A stretch of DNA of 64,000 nucleotides from positions 64,001-128,000 of the forward strand of contig JBEKSC010000004.1 in the NCBI GenBank assembly GCA_049517415.1. The letters are read 5' to 3'. Under the pieces are notes generated by a model. That model was not told where the DNA came from and searched no databases. It saw only the letters and a list, made by a program, of their open reading frames with translations. Position numbers and translations under genes: made by a program. This DNA comes from Candidatus Bathyarchaeia archaeon (GTDB taxonomy: Archaea > Thermoproteota > Bathyarchaeia > 40CM-2-53-6). This document shows positions 2,852-25,889 of the stretch, piece after piece; position 1 is the first letter of the stretch, and every line of letters begins with the position of its first letter.

Positions 2852-5794
2852 TTGACTCGCACATTATCTCGCAAGCCCCTACTACTCCTAACAGTATTAG
2901 CTTTCGTACTGTTTCTAACTCCAGCCCAGCCGTATAATTTCAGCACAACTAACACTGGGTCAGTCCAGAACGCGTCCGTGAAGGACGGGAAACTATCTTT
3001 CAATGGTGGGAACCGTGGTGGTCTCTTGGGCGCAGGGGCCATTCAACCAGTATTTGCCTACGGCACTGGACAGTATGCCAGCCTAGAACTCGGACAAAAA
3101 CCAGCAAGCTTCATTGAGGGCAGCGCTTGGCCATTCACTCAGTATGGACTGTTTGAACCGAAGGGGTTAGGAGTTGATTCGCATGGTAACGTCTGGGTTG
3201 CGGATTATTATGATAATCGTGTTTTGGAGTTTACCCGCCCATTCAGTAATGGTGAAAATGCGGTGTTGGTGTTAGGGCAGTCAGGCTACGGTACGTACAC
3301 AGCTGCGGATACCCCGAGCGGAATGAACGGCCCAAGTGGTGTAGCGGTTGATTCGAGTGGTAACCTTTGGGTTGCTGACGCGGGGAATAATCGTGTTTTA
3401 GAGTTTACTTGCACCGCCACTAGCACTTGTTCGAACGGTAACACTGCGGTAATGGTGCTGGGGCAATCAGCCTTCAACACCAAGACAGCTGCGGATACTA
3501 TGAGCGGAATGAGCGGACCAACTGGCTTAACGTTTGATTCAAATCATTGGCTGTGGGTTTCAGATACCGGGAACAATCGTGTTTTAGAGTTTACTTGCAC
3601 CGCCACTAGCACTTGTTCGAACGGTAGTGACTGGGTGGAAGTGCTGGGTCAATCATACTACGGCACCAACACAGCTGCTGACACCCAGAACGGAATGAGC
3701 GGCCCACGCGGTTTAGGGTTTGATGGTTCCAGCGTTCTCTGGGTTGCGGATTACGGTAATAATCGCGTTTTGGGGTTTGTTTGCACCGCCCGAGAGAATT
3801 GTGCGTGGGGTAGTAGTGCGTCGGTGGAGCTGGGTCAACCAAGCGGCGCAACAGCCTTCACTACAAACACCGCTGCCACCTCCCAGAGCGGAATGAGCGG
3901 ACCAAGTGACGTAGTGACTGATTCGCACGGTTACCTCTGGGTTTCGGATTTTGGTAATAATCGCGTTTTGGAATTTACTTGCGACTACGGGTATGGTTGT
4001 TCGGATGGTAATGATGCGGTGCTGGTGCTGGGTCAGTCGGGCTTCAGCACAAAAACTTCTGCTACCTCCCAGAACGGAATATGGGAACCATACGGTTTAG
4101 GGTTTGATTATTCCGGTAATCTCTGGGTTGCGGATCACGTGAATAGTCGAGTGTTAGCGTTTTGGGCCAACGAGGTGACGGCTGATAGTGACATCATAAC
4201 CCTCAGTGGTGGGGATGGGTCGTTTACGTCTAGTCTGACGAGTATGACGGTTACGATTAGCGGATCAACAGCTAGCGCATCCGTCTTTATCTTACCTCAG
4301 ACTCTCTCCACACAGAATTATGGCCTCCCGACGTTCGAGTTGAATAATCCAAAGCTCTTCGACGTAGCCATCTCAGGGATAACAACTGGCACAGCCAACG
4401 TGTGCGTACCGGACAGTTTAGCGGATTCAGCCACCGTCATCCAATATTGGAACGGCATATATTTCTGGTCCACCGCGTCGAGTATAACTGTAACTGATGG
4501 AACATCGGTCTGTGGTAACATTCCCGTCTCCTCCCTGCAAGGAAACAACATTGGAGCGGGTGATCCAGTTACTCCGACTACAACGACGACCACAACCTTA
4601 ACTTCGACGAGCATTACCGCGACGACGAGTTCTACGAGTACGACTTCAACGTTTTCAACTATCACCGGCTCGACGACCTTATCCGCGGTCACGAATGCTC
4701 CGACGGTTACCGGGACCATGACGACCACTAGTACGGTTACTGGTCCCGTGGCTGGCACTGCCACCACGATCTACACGACTATTCTGTCCACAAGCACATC
4801 GACTAGTTTGGTGACTTCCAGTGTTGGGGAGACGACTACGGAGACGGGTGTGACGACGCTCAGCACCGGTACCTCGACCAGTACGGCTACGGAGACGGCG
4901 TTTGCGACGACGACGGCTGGTGGGACGGTGACGGTTACCGAGACGAATACTTTCAACGTGCTTTTGACGAATGTCTTTCATGAGTTGCATCAGTTTGCGG
5001 ACGAGTTCCTGCAGCTGGTCGGAGTCCAGCCAGTAGTCACACCCTTCGGTCAGCAGGTGAATAGTGTTCAGGTGACGGTTCTGACGCCATGTGCGGGCTG
5101 TGTTACAAGTACCAAGACTGCTCTTACCACTCTCACCACAGTTGTGGCTACGTTGTTGAAGGGGACGACTACTACTGCGACGTCGACTGCTTCTGCCACT
5201 GTTACGCGTACTACGCCTGTTGTGTTTAGTACGACTCAGACTGCGACTCGTTCTGCGACCGCAACAAAGACTCTGACTTCAACTGCAACTGTGACTAATA
5301 CCAAGTCGGTTACGGTGGTTTCTGCGGTTTCTACGAGTACCGTGACTCCAACTAAGACTGCGGCAACCGTCACCACAACGCCAACCTCCACGGCTGCTAC
5401 TGCGTCTGTGACTGCAACCAGTACTGCGGCTACCCTGCGTGTCCCCGCAACTACTACTGGCACGGATACCGACACTACTCAAGTGACTGTTACCTTCTAC
5501 AGCTACACTAACGTTATTGTTACGGCTACCTCGACCGCCACCGTGTTCTCGCCGACTGTTACGCTATCTACTACTGCGGCTACGTTGCGCGAGCCTGCAA
5601 CTACCACTACTGTCAGCAACACGGCCACTGCGACTAGCGTTAGCACTGCGTCTGTGACGAACACTAAGACTAGCACTCAAACCTCAACCGTTACGGTCCT
5701 CCACGTGGCTACGACAACTACTCAGACTACGGCCGCTGCCACTCCCACTGTAACAGTAGTCACCACGGTGACAACAACAACATCAGGCGCATGA
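2852..5794 (+). CDS. Secreted NHL-repeat beta-propeller protein with long Thr-rich C-terminal tail
   Basis: N-terminal hydrophobic signal, six 'GP.G...D..GNLWVAD..NNRVLEF' repeats, about 400 aa Thr/Val/Ser tail. Confidence 0.9.
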   Translation: MTRTLSRKPLLLLTVLAFVLFLTPAQPYNFSTTNTGSVQNASVKDGKLSFNGGNRGGLLGAGAIQPVFAYGTGQYASLELGQKPASFIEGSAWPFTQYGLFEPKGLGVDSHGNVWVADYYDNRVLEFTRPFSNGENAVLVLGQSGYGTYTAADTPSGMNGPSGVAVDSSGNLWVADAGNNRVLEFTCTATSTCSNGNTAVMVLGQSAFNTKTAADTMSGMSGPTGLTFDSNHWLWVSDTGNNRVLEFTCTATSTCSNGSDWVEVLGQSYYGTNTAADTQNGMSGPRGLGFDGSSVLWVADYGNNRVLGFVCTARENCAWGSSASVELGQPSGATAFTTNTAATSQSGMSGPSDVVTDSHGYLWVSDFGNNRVLEFTCDYGYGCSDGNDAVLVLGQSGFSTKTSATSQNGIWEPYGLGFDYSGNLWVADHVNSRVLAFWANEVTADSDIITLSGGDGSFTSSLTSMTVTISGSTASASVFILPQTLSTQNYGLPTFELNNPKLFDVAISGITTGTANVCVPDSLADSATVIQYWNGIYFWSTASSITVTDGTSVCGNIPVSSLQGNNIGAGDPVTPTTTTTTTLTSTSITATTSSTSTTSTFSTITGSTTLSAVTNAPTVTGTMTTTSTVTGPVAGTATTIYTTILSTSTSTSLVTSSVGETTTETGVTTLSTGTSTSTATETAFATTTAGGTVTVTETNTFNVLLTNVFHELHQFADEFLQLVGVQPVVTPFGQQVNSVQVTVLTPCAGCVTSTKTALTTLTTVVATLLKGTTTTATSTASATVTRTTPVVFSTTQTATRSATATKTLTSTATVTNTKSVTVVSAVSTSTVTPTKTAATVTTTPTSTAATASVTATSTAATLRVPATTTGTDTDTTQVTVTFYSYTNVIVTATSTATVFSPTVTLSTTAATLREPATTTTVSNTATATSVSTASVTNTKTSTQTSTVTVLHVATTTTQTTAAATPTVTVVTTVTTTTSGA

Positions 5795-21173: not shown

Positions 21174-23507
21174 TCATGTTACCGCCGTGTATTTGTAGCC
21201 TGAACCAAATTTTCTTTGCCGAATAATCTTCTGCTCAAGTATGCTTGCGACCGTTTGCCCATCCAACTGAACGACGGTTTGGTTCTGAAGTTGCATCGGG
21301 CCGGATCCTCCTTGGGAAGTTGGCGCTGCGGGTGGCGTTAGACCTGCGCCTATGGCTGCCTGTTGCGCCGGCGTTAGAACCTCCTCGCCGCCGTGAAGCA
21401 TGTAGATCCCCGTTGTGGGAACCATGCCGCCGAGTTGATAGCCTGGGCCTGTAAATTCTCCAAGTCCAGCCCCCGAAAGGCTCACGTTAATGCTGGTCAT
21501 AATCTCGCTGGGGATTTTGTCGAGCCAACTGATGACGTTTTGAATAACGCTGATCGCATCATCCGCAATCGTGGTGACAGTCGTTTCTATCATCGACGGA
21601 ATTGTAGAGATAACTGCGGTGACTTGGTCGAATCCAGTAACCGCATCCGAAACCACAGAACTAACAGTGATGTCCTTTGTGGACGGGATTGCCGCTAAAC
21701 CTGAGGTAACGGCGCCGAACGCTGCCTGCGCCCCACTTTGAATCTGCGACCATGTATTACTGAGAGCCGCAGCCACAGGCTGCACGGCCGTTGTTACTTT
21801 AGACCATAACGTTGAGCCAAGGTTAGTGTTGATTTGGTTTCCAATATTCAAAGTGGTAGTGGCCAGCGGCCCCATCCCGCTCGCTGCTGCGGTGGTCACG
21901 TCGTCCGTTCCAGTAGTCGTATCCTGGGTGGTCTTAGCCCAGAGGCCGTTCCACCAGTCGGTTAGATCTTGCCCCGCTGTCTGCGCGCCCTTCTGGATGC
22001 CCGTCGTGAAATTAGCCCAGTCCTGCTGGTACGTTTGAAGCCACCCGGGGGCGTTTTGTTCTTGGTTCGCGCCAGTGAAAATTTGGTCGGTCGGCGGGTT
22101 TAGGTTCTTTTGACTGAAAGCTTCGGGCGGTGGCGTTACATTCGTAAGTGTGGCCTGGTATGTCGGGGCGTTGGATTGAGGAATGACTTGGGCCGTCTGT
22201 GCAGTCGCGACGCCCATTGGTATGATGCCTACACTTTGAAGCCACTTCACATCGGTCATGATGGCGTTTAAGAAATCCATGCCCGTGATCGCGAGGTCGA
22301 GTGCTACTTCAATTGCGCCTTTAGCAACCTCAGAGACGAACCCCATGAGTTCAGTCAAGTCGCCAGAAGCCACGAACCCCGAGAAGACGCCCATGAATTT
22401 ACTCCACGTTGTCTGGACGCTTGGGTCGAGGGCTAGTGAAGTGATCCAGCTTGTGAATTTGGGCAGGTTGTCGTCAAGCCAACTGGTGAGGGATGTGAGT
22501 GTGGGGAGAAGCATGTCTCCAATTTGTATTTGGAGGTCGGCCCATTCGTTCGTGAGTTGCTGCTGCTTTCCCGCGTACGTGTCCAGCTGGGTTTGAGCTG
22601 CGCTCCCGAACTTATCGTTCAGCTGCGCCATAATGTCGTTGTAGTCTGACGCCTTAGCCGTTGCCCAGTCAAAGTTGATGCCCAGGGCGTGAGTTATGTC
22701 GTTCATCTGGGATGTGGTGATGGTGCCGGCTTTCCATGCGGTAACTAACTCGCCCGTAATCTGTGTCGCAGTCAGCTCTTTCCCGGTAGTAGTTGTGAGG
22801 CTGATTCCTGCCTGTTGAAGTATCTGTGTGAAGGGTTGTAGGGCGTTGACGCCGGCTTTCTGAATCGCAGCCGTTAAGTCGGCGGTTCCTTGTTTAAGAT
22901 CTGCGTTCGCCTTCGTCGTAGTCTGAATAATAATTCCGTACCGGGAGAGGGTGGTTGTGACACCGTCGAATGCTTTCCCGACAAGGTTCACGGCAGTGGT
23001 TAGGTCAAGATTCTTCGCGGCGGACAGGTTAGTTGCGACGGTCAGCGCTTGTTCCGCTTGCGTTGCGTTCATGCCGTAGGTTGCAAGAAGTTGCAGCCCC
23101 TGAACGGCAGCGGTTTGGCTGACGGTTGAAACCTGCTCTAAGCCCTGGACGAAGTTCTGGATCTGTGGTTGCTGCGCAGCCCAGGCGGCGCCGGTTAGGT
23201 GGAGGGATTGTTGAAGCATCGCCCACGCTGACTGTGAAGCTGCCGCAGCGGCTACGGCTTGTTGTATGCCTTGGACGACTTCGCCGATTCCAATAACCGC
23301 CGCGCCTGTCCATCCTGCAACCGCGAAGCCTTGCATCATCTGGCCGACTTGCGCGAAGCCTGGGCCGAGCTGCTGCAACTCCATACCCATTAGGCCCATT
23401 GAAGCGCTAATCTTCCCCATCACACTACTTGCTTCGTGACGGCGCCGTTTTTGTTACGGCTCTACCGCTTGGATGGCGAAGACTATACTTCCGATGTTTG
23501 TACTCAA
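21174..23507 (-). CDS. Tail tape measure protein, spliced (join 23507-23462, 23437-21174), 769 aa
   Basis: Long Ala/Gly/Thr-rich helical protein ('VGKAFDG...L.RYGI', C-terminal 'LHGGEEVLT', 'VQLDGQTVA'); TTG start with GGTGA RBS upstream of an intron. Confidence 0.9.
23438..23461 (-). other. 24-nt BHB intron in mRNA
   Basis: G CGGU AG|A GCCGU-AACAAAA-ACGGC GCCG UC|A C; carries an in-frame UAA; spliced product reads AIQAVDEASS. Confidence 0.85.
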
Positions 23508-23566
23508 ATCACGTTCACCTTCGTGGATGGTGTTTCTTAAAAATCGGAAGCCAGGTTCGTTGCAGG
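23497..23566. repeat. Imperfect direct repeat A, copy 1 (chaperone-GT end and tape-measure start)
   Basis: Matches 25336-25408 (tttgtactcaaatca..ttcaccttcgtggatg..). Confidence 0.85.
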
Positions 23567-23849
23567 GATGGTCCCATGTTGGCGCAAGCGCAAGAAGTCG
23601 AAAGGCTCCGCGAAGAAAACAGGGGACATAGAGAAATTTAATCGGCTAGAAAAAGTTGCCAATGAGATAATGATAAAGCAAGAGGAACGAATCAAGAAAC
23701 TAGAGACCGCATCAAGCCTCAAGGTCGAGCACCCAAGCCACGATAAGACGCCCGTATCCAAGGACAAGAAGCCTTAATCAAACTCTAGGGACGATAATTG
23801 GCTTTGTCGTCCTCCAATTCTGAAGACCCTATCCCGTTTTTCGCCATTC

Positions 23850-24364
23850 TCATGTGTTTATGGGAAGCTTGAAGTACATGAATGGCTCGCGCCGACCTTT
23901 CGGTTGATTTTCAGCCAGTTTGAATCCGCAATGTTCGTAGAAAGGAATAGACGCTATCTTTGCATTTAGTATCACAAATTGACATGCAACTTCCTCACGT
24001 ACTTTGGCAGCTGTGGCGATGGCATAGAGGCAGAGTATTCGGCCGACTCCCTTGCCTTGAAATTGCAGTTCAGTAGCAAGTCGTCCAATCATCAATGACG
24101 GATAGTATCGGTACGGCGTGTGCAACGGGCGGTGTTTTTCGTCAATGCTACTGACTTCGATGCTGCTCATACAAGACTCAAGAAGCCTGCAATTTGCGTG
24201 TTGAACAAGGCCAGATAAATGACAGCCGCGTGCTGAAGTTGCTGGTCTTTGGCTTGGTATCTTATGTAGTCATTAAGGTCTGAATTGCCGCAGTCAAAGA
24301 ACCCTGTGTCGTCAGCTATGCTTAGCTTGCGTAGGTTGATTTCTTCGACGGAAAAGATGGACAA
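23850..24364 (-). pseudogene. GNAT acetyltransferase toxin, frameshifted near 24170
   Basis: 'FDCGNSDLNDYI' in the first ORF; 'IGRLA....QGKGVGR' and 'FYE.CGF' in the second. Confidence 0.85.
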
Positions 24365-25168: not shown

Positions 25169-25335
25169 GAGAGAGATGACCGGTGGTCATCACTCTATAT
25201 TTATGTGTAGTCACCAAGGCACACTCTCAATGCATCCCACTTCGATCTGAACTCTAGCTTCAGAGCCCTGCACTCCTCAGCGTGCGATTCACTTAATCCA
25301 AAATCAGGGGACTGTACCAACCCCTCGCGGGAATT

Positions 25336-25408
25336 TTTGTACTCAAATCATTTTCACCTTCGTGGATGCTGTTTTTTAAAAATGAGAAGCAGCCACTCTT
25401 GTTGTAAA
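25336..25408. repeat. Imperfect direct repeat A, copy 2
   Basis: Matches 23497-23566. Confidence 0.85.
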
Positions 25409-25505
25409 CGAGTGGGTTCCTCCATTCGTTCGGTTAACTTGTAACCGAACTCTGAGACTAGGACTTCGAGAGGGGCCGAGTAGACGGATCCTTCAGCGAA
25501 TGAAC

Positions 25506-25889
25506 TCAGTTTGGCTTTGAGGCTTTTGGGCCCGCGGACAATCCGGATAGCTCAAACGAACGCAGAATAAGTTTCAAGCTTTCCATGGGCATCAAGGCTT
25601 TGGCCACGTCTGGCGCGCCTGTGGCGATGGCTGCGCCTTTCTGTAGAAACGCCAAGTTCGACGCCAACTTATCCTTGTTGCCGATATCCTTCAAGTCCAC
25701 GTTTGTTGACTGTAGGAGCTCTGCCAGGTCCGCGTCGCTCATTGGTGAGACCTCGAACTTGTGCAGTTCATTGTCGACGCCCTTGACCTCGACGGCTTCA
25801 TGGTACTTGGTGCCCTTCGTGATGAGTTCGGCTAGTTTCTGGTTCGCCGCTCTGGCTTCCAAGATTGCCTCTCGTTTTTCTTGACTCAA
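25506..25889 (-). CDS. Tail assembly chaperone (gpG-like) with -1 slippery site
   Basis: Lies between tail tube and tape measure; C CCA AAA heptamer near the 3' end (25524-25530). Confidence 0.75.
   Translation of the reverse strand: MSQEKREAILEARAANQKLAELITKGTKYHEAVEVKGVDNELHKFEVSPMSDADLAELLQSTNVDLKDIGNKDKLASNLAFLQKGAAIATGAPDVAKALMPMESLKLILRSFELSGLSAGPKASKPN

Follow-up and report, generated by a model that had tools for sequence, protein, structure and literature searches.

The question raised by this locus is how a gene can be read when a stop codon stands in its frame 15 codons past the start. The locus lies in a window of 64,000 nucleotides (nt) from a Candidatus Bathyarchaeia archaeon (contig JBEKSC010000004.1; the window is the whole stretch of DNA that was analysed, and positions are counted within it), where the tape-measure gene of a provirus, read from the minus strand, holds a 24-nt insert at 23438-23461 with an in-frame TAA. 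Judging from the sequence, we consider it likely that these 24 nt are a spliced mini-intron of the archaeal tRNA type, that is, one marked by the motif called bulge-helix-bulge (BHB), in the tape-measure mRNA. Since the insert has both a stop codon and the shape that is cut by the tRNA-splicing enzyme of the host, RNA splicing is probably required before the gene can be translated in full. Four observations carry this answer: the geometry of the insert, the agreement between its structural and its homology-defined boundaries, its recurrence in relatives, and the splicing enzymes encoded by the host.

The start of the gene was considered first in terms of its signals and its frame. A ribosome binding site (RBS), AGGTGA, precedes a TTG start at 23507-23505. 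The frame opened by this TTG reads LSTNIGSIVFAIQAVEP, then TAA, then QKRRRHEASSVMGKISASMG (the residues after the stop are also given as QKRRRHEASSVMGKI), and it is open thereafter to 21174. In the mechanical list of open reading frames (ORFs) the gene appears as an ORF of 749 amino acids (aa) with a GTG start at 23423. Removal of 23461-23438 makes a GAC codon for Asp and joins both frames; because an A is repeated at the boundary, two cut positions 1 nt apart give the identical product. The initial annotation had already described the TTG with its GGTGA-type RBS, the UAA inside the insert, the Asp codon made by splicing and an ORF track setting in at 23423, and each of these points was reproduced from the letters. 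Four metagenome records (L046-L049) match the window across the insert and carry it in identical form; therefore it is real DNA and not an assembly artefact.

By comparison with relatives, a check that had been proposed in the initial annotation, the ends of the insert could be placed by homology. The comparison was made on the DNA of 39 loci, the window included, whose match reaches residue 1, and these represent 25 distinct 5′ ends. The insert is absent from 19 of the 25, where a GGTGA- or AAGTGA-type RBS is followed by TTG or ATG and by an N-terminus that reads continuously through the junction. These relatives read AIQAIDEASGVMGKI without a break, and their ...A[IV]DEAS... is the product that removal of the 24 nt yields in the window. 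Their common pattern, x-S-[TV]-[NS]-[IV]-G-S-[IV]-V-...-A-[IV]-D-E-A-S-G-V-M-G-K-I, was seen in the proteins P0005, P0009, P0011, and P0012 and in the loci L004, L006-L011, and L050-L056, among others; at the N-terminus P0005 reads LSTNIGSVVFAIQAIDEASGVMGKISASMG, and P0009, P0011, and P0012 read xSV[SN]IGSIVMT[IV]KAIDEASGVMGKI. In the alignment (A2) the gap set by MAFFT against the window is exactly AGCCGTAACAAAAACGGCGCCGTC, between GGTAG and ACGAA, and the Asp at the junction is present in every relative at that place. Exon 1 differs from the corresponding codons of the intron-less L006 by five synonymous and two conservative changes in 15 codons (A2). The N-terminal motif had been taken as common to tape-measure proteins in general; it holds within the family of tape-measure proteins of Bathyarchaeia viruses, the sole group checked.

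The comparison also bears on the possibility that the insertion is left unspliced, as a hairpin-forming mutation or the footprint of a selfish DNA, so that translation would restart at GTG 23423 or ATG 23420 with the loss of about 26 residues, or the provirus would be decaying. The mechanical ORF start at 23423 agrees with such a restart, and so do the gene callers, which began P0001-P0004 at or downstream of the ATG; these are the database entries for the window gene or near-identical copies, and they miss the N-terminal 26 residues. Decay would fit a frameshifted GNAT gene that adjoins the tape-measure gene and the two extra frameshifts of the insert-bearing relative L005. However, a GGTGA-type RBS is absent before 23423 and 23420, all relatives conserve the 26 residues of the N-terminus, and exon 1 has been retained together with its start signals, which were even duplicated in a way that keeps them before the gene. 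With the further inserts described below, we regard an unspliced insertion as unlikely.

The shape of the insert in RNA was then compared with known splicing motifs. As set out in section 4 of PMC4090602, a BHB has a helix of 4 bp with a 3-nt bulge on either side, and the first two bases of the anticodon take part in this helix. The RNA at 23468-23436 is G CGGU AG/A GCCGU AACAAAA ACGGC GCCG UC/A C, with slashes at the predicted cuts; it is the RNA that the initial annotation had drawn, and its CGGU/GCCG helix, bulges, and hairpin were confirmed. Two 3-nt bulges on opposite strands with a 4-bp helix between them were found here and in five further inserts. The cut is placed after the second base of each bulge because the anticodon bases lie in the helix and the canonical splice site is 37/38. 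In the window the outer helix (h) is a single pair, G23468 with C23436, so the motif takes the relaxed form HBh′, with 5 bp in the inner helix h′; among the insert-bearing relatives the outer helix has 1-6 bp, and the minimum free energy (MFE) fold of L005 displays the full hBHBh′. In the MFE fold of the window (−14.4 kcal/mol, z −2.29) the CGGU/GCCG helix is formed along with the AGA bulge and the 5-bp hairpin, and 3 of 200 shuffled sequences folded as well as this. The cuts predicted from this structure coincide with the boundaries of the window insert defined by homology. A compact BHB arose at an equivalent boundary in 7 of 300,000 shuffles of the window's motif segment (the values for the other inserts are in Table 1).

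The same architecture recurs in five further distinct relatives, whose inserts of 21 or 22 nt occupy three other sites within about 25 nt (Table 1). Cutting after the second bulge base gives the V-D-E-A-S junction and restores the frame in all six distinct inserts, and the 22-nt insert of L057 is a frameshift unless it is excised at exactly the predicted cuts. At each site the last four bases of the intron complement the exon that precedes the first bulge, and the helices formed in this way are of five different sequences. The introns of L005 and L063 stand at one site and agree in 20 of 21 bases; the base in which they differ makes up for a change in the exon (C:G to G:C). The introns of the window and L057 share the 3′ end GCGCCGUCA, in registers that differ (GCCG versus CGUC) and at sites 5 nt apart. 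Random inserts would not repeat a protein-restoring BHB in six distinct sequences, and their 3′ ends would not follow the local exon; in addition, the 22-nt insert of L057 leaves no near start in the downstream frame, which speaks against a restart of translation there.

Translational recoding, in which the ribosome would hop across the 24 nt or decode the UAA by read-through, was considered too. A stop within a hairpin soon after a possible take-off codon resembles gene 60 of phage T4, and GAG at 23462-23460 and GAA at 23435-23433 could pair with one tRNA-Glu. But a hop from GAG to GAA would remove the Asp that is invariant in the relatives, and L057 and L065 are without a matching landing codon before the downstream frame. 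Reading through the stop would add eight unconserved residues and would not repair the frameshift of L057. Recoding thus appeared so improbable that it was rejected.

The splicing machinery was searched for in the host genome, which is archaeal (small subunit rRNA, 1463.8 bits). It encodes two EndA paralogs, of 190 and 187 aa, at G000 C10:75178 and C2:42070 (two PF01974 matches, 79.5 and 56.5 bits) and RtcB (PF01139, 572.9 bits). One EndA paralog is near the crenarchaeal EndA chains 3p1z_B (E 7.5e-39), 3ajv_B, and 2zyz_B, and the other is divergent. The presence of two paralogs fits an enzyme of the two-subunit, lenient type; leniency of α2β2 EndA toward relaxed motifs is described in parts of PMC4090602 and PMC7714728.

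It is conceivable that EndA cuts the tape-measure mRNA and productive joining does not follow. The element would then serve for processing or attenuation by separating exon 1 from the rest of the mRNA, leaving less tape measure or a new 5′ end. Such processing by EndA is described for a BHB element in the 5′ untranslated region (5′UTR) of HVO_1309 in Haloferax (passages of PMC7714728), and the tape-measure element begins just 45 nt into the gene. Yet exon 1 is conserved as protein, RtcB is present in the host, and the exact conserved codon is restored in 6 of 6 inserts, the 22-nt case among them, which would be needless for mere cleavage. We hold cleavage of this kind to be very improbable.

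The cutting rule was controlled on tRNA genes of the same host. Fourteen regions were fetched, and seven of them match the Rfam tRNA model with inserts. For three of the seven, whose inserts measure 15, 18, and 23 nt, splicing by the rule at the canonical register leaves a 7-nt anticodon loop with a closed 5-bp stem; for the other four, with longer or multiple inserts, this register was too simple to place the cuts. An earlier form of the control was discarded: ARAGORN placed introns in 25 of 30 host tRNAs, and these calls were unreliable. Only 1 of 21 of them obeyed the rule at its own junctions and shifted registers did equally well, and a rerun of ARAGORN on spliced candidates with a 4-bp helix returned a "tRNA" in 17-18 of 21 regions at any register. 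The program being too permissive, the Rfam alignments were used in its place. The host tRNA genes L093, L103, L099, and L097 hold either a pair of inserts or long ones placed elsewhere than in the anticodon loop; in L093 (G000 C1:94740-94930), for instance, about 25 nt are added in the D region and 23 nt at 37/38. Genes of this kind fit an intron-rich tRNA set.

Under splicing, which is the reading we favour, the events could be pictured as follows. In the transcript, the exon bases CGGU would pair with the intron bases GCCG to form the 4-bp helix flanked by the bulges AGA and UCA, with the 5-bp intron hairpin stacked on one side. The host EndA, if it is of the two-subunit, lenient crenarchaeal type, would cut past the second base of each bulge, and RtcB would ligate the exons. 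In this way splicing would remove the UAA, make the conserved Asp codon, and tie the TTG and its RBS to the 749-codon body of the gene.

Several points weigh against this proposal. A search for RNA sequencing runs covering 22900-23800 listed none. The compact motif (a 4-bp helix with at most one G.U pair, 3-nt bulges, an inner stem of at least 4 bp and a loop of 3-9 nt) was counted 5459 times over the two strands of the 2.65-Mb genome, or roughly one per kb on each strand, and a looser BHB finder gave several matches per 180 nt; the motif alone is therefore weak evidence. The fold z-scores across the inserts run from −3.4 (L005) to +0.14 (L057), the MFE fold of L065 is without the proposed central helix, and the centroid structure of L057 matches the model partly. 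Because the outer helix is minimal in the window, with its one G-C pair, a lenient endonuclease would be needed, and we infer this leniency from the number of paralogs and their similarity, as we infer cutting and joining on the tape-measure mRNA from the DNA. The host cbf5, the classic intron-bearing mRNA, is uninterrupted. The GNAT gene about 400 nt upstream is frameshifted, a sign of some decay or oddity in the provirus, and the tape-measure gene of L005, from a Bathyarchaeota metagenome-assembled genome, has two more frame changes downstream of its 21-nt insert (about 3396-3456 and 4394-4397) with no visible inserts; these could stem from decay or from (long-read) indel errors in the assembly. 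In L065, at about 1421-1423, CTG replaces the TTG of the relatives behind a normal AGGTGA, so that either this codon is a rare start or the start has been damaged. Finally, L005, L063, L065, and L069 share a TCN codon for a Ser of exon 1 (at the equivalent of window 23489-23487; A2), so that the six cases may amount to fewer than six independent events.

This Ser codon is AGY in all intron-less relatives, in the window and in L057 (A2), and in L063, L065, and L069 the gene module upstream is unlike that of most intron-less close relatives. The codon and the module together suggest a separate 5′-module lineage in which inserts are frequent, and L005, L063, L065, and L069 may form this one lineage, not four independent gains. 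Among the 34 homologous proteins that were found, the nearest intron-less one is 53% identical. A tree was built from the first 230 residues, and in it the loci with an intron lie scattered: the sister of the window is L006, 82% identical and without insert, and the nearest rows to L063 are L075 and L068, also without insert.

Considering that the inserts occupy four nearby sites, that close relatives are intron-less and that the 3′ ends complement the local exon, the inserts look as if they had been gained and moved recently and were not old and fixed, which is a more speculative reading than that of splicing. We put forward, tentatively and with more doubt than confidence, that they are mobile BHB mini-introns of 21-24 nt with no protein of their own, which would spread among divergent Bathyarchaeia viruses and hop nearby, with the target given by the pairing of the four 3′ bases of the intron with the exon. 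The route could be a reversal of EndA and RtcB followed by DNA copying, or co-conversion in the course of recombination at the module boundary that precedes the tape-measure gene. If such mobility were true, a key virion protein would depend for its production on host tRNA splicing, be it as a timing switch or as a means of altering conserved DNA with no change of the protein.

Copies of the introns outside these loci were looked for. An exact pattern search of viral contigs with the 21-nt intron had L084 as its sole match, and since the match lies in an open coding frame with no flanking motif it was taken as chance. Among 401 genomes of the class, the sole match was G272, the same DNA as L005, and intron cores with at most one mismatch had no other convincing context in 396 kb of loci or in the genome. 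The idea of escape from CRISPR was examined with the 150-nt intron-less 5′ end of L006 against 59 genomes of the family, and no spacer-like match was found, which is a weak negative because such arrays are often unassembled; apart from provirus homologs (G000, G278, G272), the sole match was a 30-nt duplicate within the window itself, at 25333-25362. Two further candidates for introns were set aside. A scan of the genome for mRNA introns (compact BHB with an ORF-joining filter) gave 174 candidates, mainly neighbouring genes joined by chance, and was uninformative. A second intron in the GNAT gene at 24167-24170 was ruled out, the sequence being a plain frameshift (...GFLSLV and stop versus ...SCMSSIEV...) with no insert.

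The identity of the gene was established by its similarity to the tape-measure families phrog_58, 991, 1272, and 28 (E 1.9e-11, for phrog_58, to 1.1e-7) and by its position, after a two-frame tail chaperone and before the distal tail genes; PF10145 stayed below its cut-off (17.2 versus 33.2 bits). A Prophage_tail protein is encoded downstream, and capsid and portal genes are on the same strand. The homolog P0009 is labelled Candidatus Bathyarchaeia, and two related loci belong to metagenome-assembled genomes of Bathyarchaeia/Bathyarchaeota. The tail chaperone pair, at about 25340-25889 on the minus strand, has two overlapping G/GT-like frames, as upstream of the tape-measure gene in L006 and L004. 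The G-like frame ends with ...GPKASKPN and a stop, and the second continues ...FAEGSVYSAPLEVLV...KKQHPRR to a stop that falls inside the AGGTGA of the next gene; the layout is the one expected for a programmed frameshift.

A cassette of about 1.8 kb, which went into the tape-measure gene after about codon 4, separates this gene from the chaperone and comprises small ORFs together with the frameshifted GNAT gene and a 76-aa ORF. Owing to a 48-nt direct duplication on either side of the cassette, the start signals were kept before the gene after this insertion, and the duplication and the cassette together mark the 5′ end of the tape-measure gene as a recombination boundary. The upstream copy of the duplication opens a short ORF, LSTKIPARGWYSPLILD, followed by a stop. 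The GNAT gene is split into ORFs at 24167-24364 and 23850-24170 (minus strand), which cover positions 11-69 and 88-175 of the phrog_1758 profile. The features are collected in Table 1.

Table 1: Features of the tape-measure locus in the window and the six distinct inserts of the family. Slashes mark predicted cuts; the last column gives the shuffles, out of 300,000, with a compact BHB at the equivalent boundary.
Feature	DNA	Positions	Strand	Insert length	Description	Shuffles
RBS AGGTGA	window	23515..23520	-		7 nt 5′ of TTG; GGTGA/AAGTGA with TTG/ATG conserved in relatives	
Exon 1	window	23462..23507	-		TTG, 15 codons and the G that opens the Asp codon (LSTNIGSIVFAIQAV + G)	
Predicted mini-intron	window	23438..23461	-	24 nt	TAA at 23454-23456, in the frame of exon 1; same interval from MAFFT gap and BHB finder	
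Exon 2	window	21174..23437	-		remainder of the tape-measure gene, stop 21174-21176; open frame, phrog_58 match	
Central helix H, 5′ strand CGGU (exon)	window	23464..23467	-		pairs with GCCG 23443-23440; 4 bp, one U.G	
Central helix H, 3′ strand GCCG (intron)	window	23440..23443	-			
Bulge 1, AG/A	window	23461..23463	-		predicted 5′ cut between 23462 and 23461; 3 nt unpaired in MFE fold	
Bulge 2, UC/A	window	23437..23439	-		predicted 3′ cut between 23438 and 23437	
Inner hairpin h′	window	23444..23460	-		GCCGU, loop AACAAAA, ACGGC; 5 bp, 7-nt loop	
Duplication copy 2, 48 nt	window	23497..23544	-		chaperone end, RBS, TTG and first codons; 92% to 25336-25383 (blastn)	
Insert, site A	L005			21 nt	UCGU AU/A ... 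GCGA AU/U; hairpin GUAGC-AGCA-GCUAC	405
Insert, site A	L063 (= L074)			21 nt	UGGU AA/A ... GCCA AU/U; hairpin GUAGC-AGCA-GCUAC	115
Insert, site B, 6 nt 3′ of A	L069			21 nt	UGGC AA/A ... GCCA AU/U; hairpin GUAGC-AGCA-GCUAC	72
Insert, site C	window			24 nt	CGGU AG/A ... GCCG UC/A; hairpin GCCGU-AACAAAA-ACGGC	7
Insert, site D	L057			22 nt	GACG AA/A ... CGUC AU/G; hairpin of 4 bp, 7-nt loop	32
Insert, site D	L065			21 nt	GACG AA/A ... CGUU CU/G; hairpin of 3 bp, 8-nt loop	55

The closest known system is the intron of cbf5 in Desulfurococcales and Sulfolobales (Watanabe 2002; PMC2738675). In passages of PMC2738675 (Yokobori 2009) it is given as the sole confirmed BHB intron of an archaeal pre-mRNA, and parts of PMC7714728 (2020) agree and add the element of Haloferax volcanii HVO_1309. 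According to these accounts, the cbf5 intron is also a short BHB intron that interrupts a protein-coding gene, is cut by the tRNA-splicing endonuclease in a lineage with the two-subunit enzyme, varies in presence from lineage to lineage and has in some cases a length that is a multiple of 3, removal being required all the same. In contrast to cbf5, a cellular housekeeping gene, the gene described here is a viral structural one; the inserts have 21-24 nt, shorter than some cbf5 introns, for which 33-39 nt are given, and they are found at four sites in about 25 nt and are polymorphic among near-identical relatives. Splicing of cbf5 has been demonstrated experimentally by those accounts, whereas the tape-measure intron is known from sequence.

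The motif, the cutting rule, and the size range are shared with the introns of archaeal pre-tRNAs, at 37/38 and at non-canonical positions, for which parts of PMC4090602 give lengths of 11-129 nt with medians of 12-25 and the motifs hBHBh′, hBH, and HBh′. The substrate here is instead an mRNA, and because coding constrains the exon strand of the central helix in the tape-measure mRNA, it is the 3′ end of the intron that adapts. The HVO_1309 element, too, belongs to an mRNA and is a target of EndA close to the 5′ end of its gene, but by the description in PMC7714728 it lies in an untranslated leader, whereas the tape-measure element is inside the coding sequence and has a stop. Very short inserts that come and go in protein genes of an archaeal virus are the 12-bp putative "introns" of a rudivirus (Peng et al., as cited in PMC2738675), for which, by that citation, splicing was not shown and which are maybe translated; unlike these, the tape-measure inserts contain a stop or cause a frameshift, and their geometry is that of a defined BHB. 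No description of BHB introns in viral structural genes was found in the literature searched, and papers beyond it could exist.

On record, as far as PMC2738675 and PMC7714728 describe it, the BHB introns of archaeal protein-coding genes are essentially cbf5 and one 5′UTR. If the interpretation proposed here is true, gene callers would shorten genes of Bathyarchaeia and of their viruses or break them apart, which is a warning for their annotation. As the inserts are polymorphic among close relatives, they would offer a natural series of intron gain, loss, and sliding in which the movement of such introns could be followed. The interpretation would also mean that archaeal viruses use the tRNA splicing of their host for their own mRNAs, by means of stop-carrying mini-introns in a structural gene.

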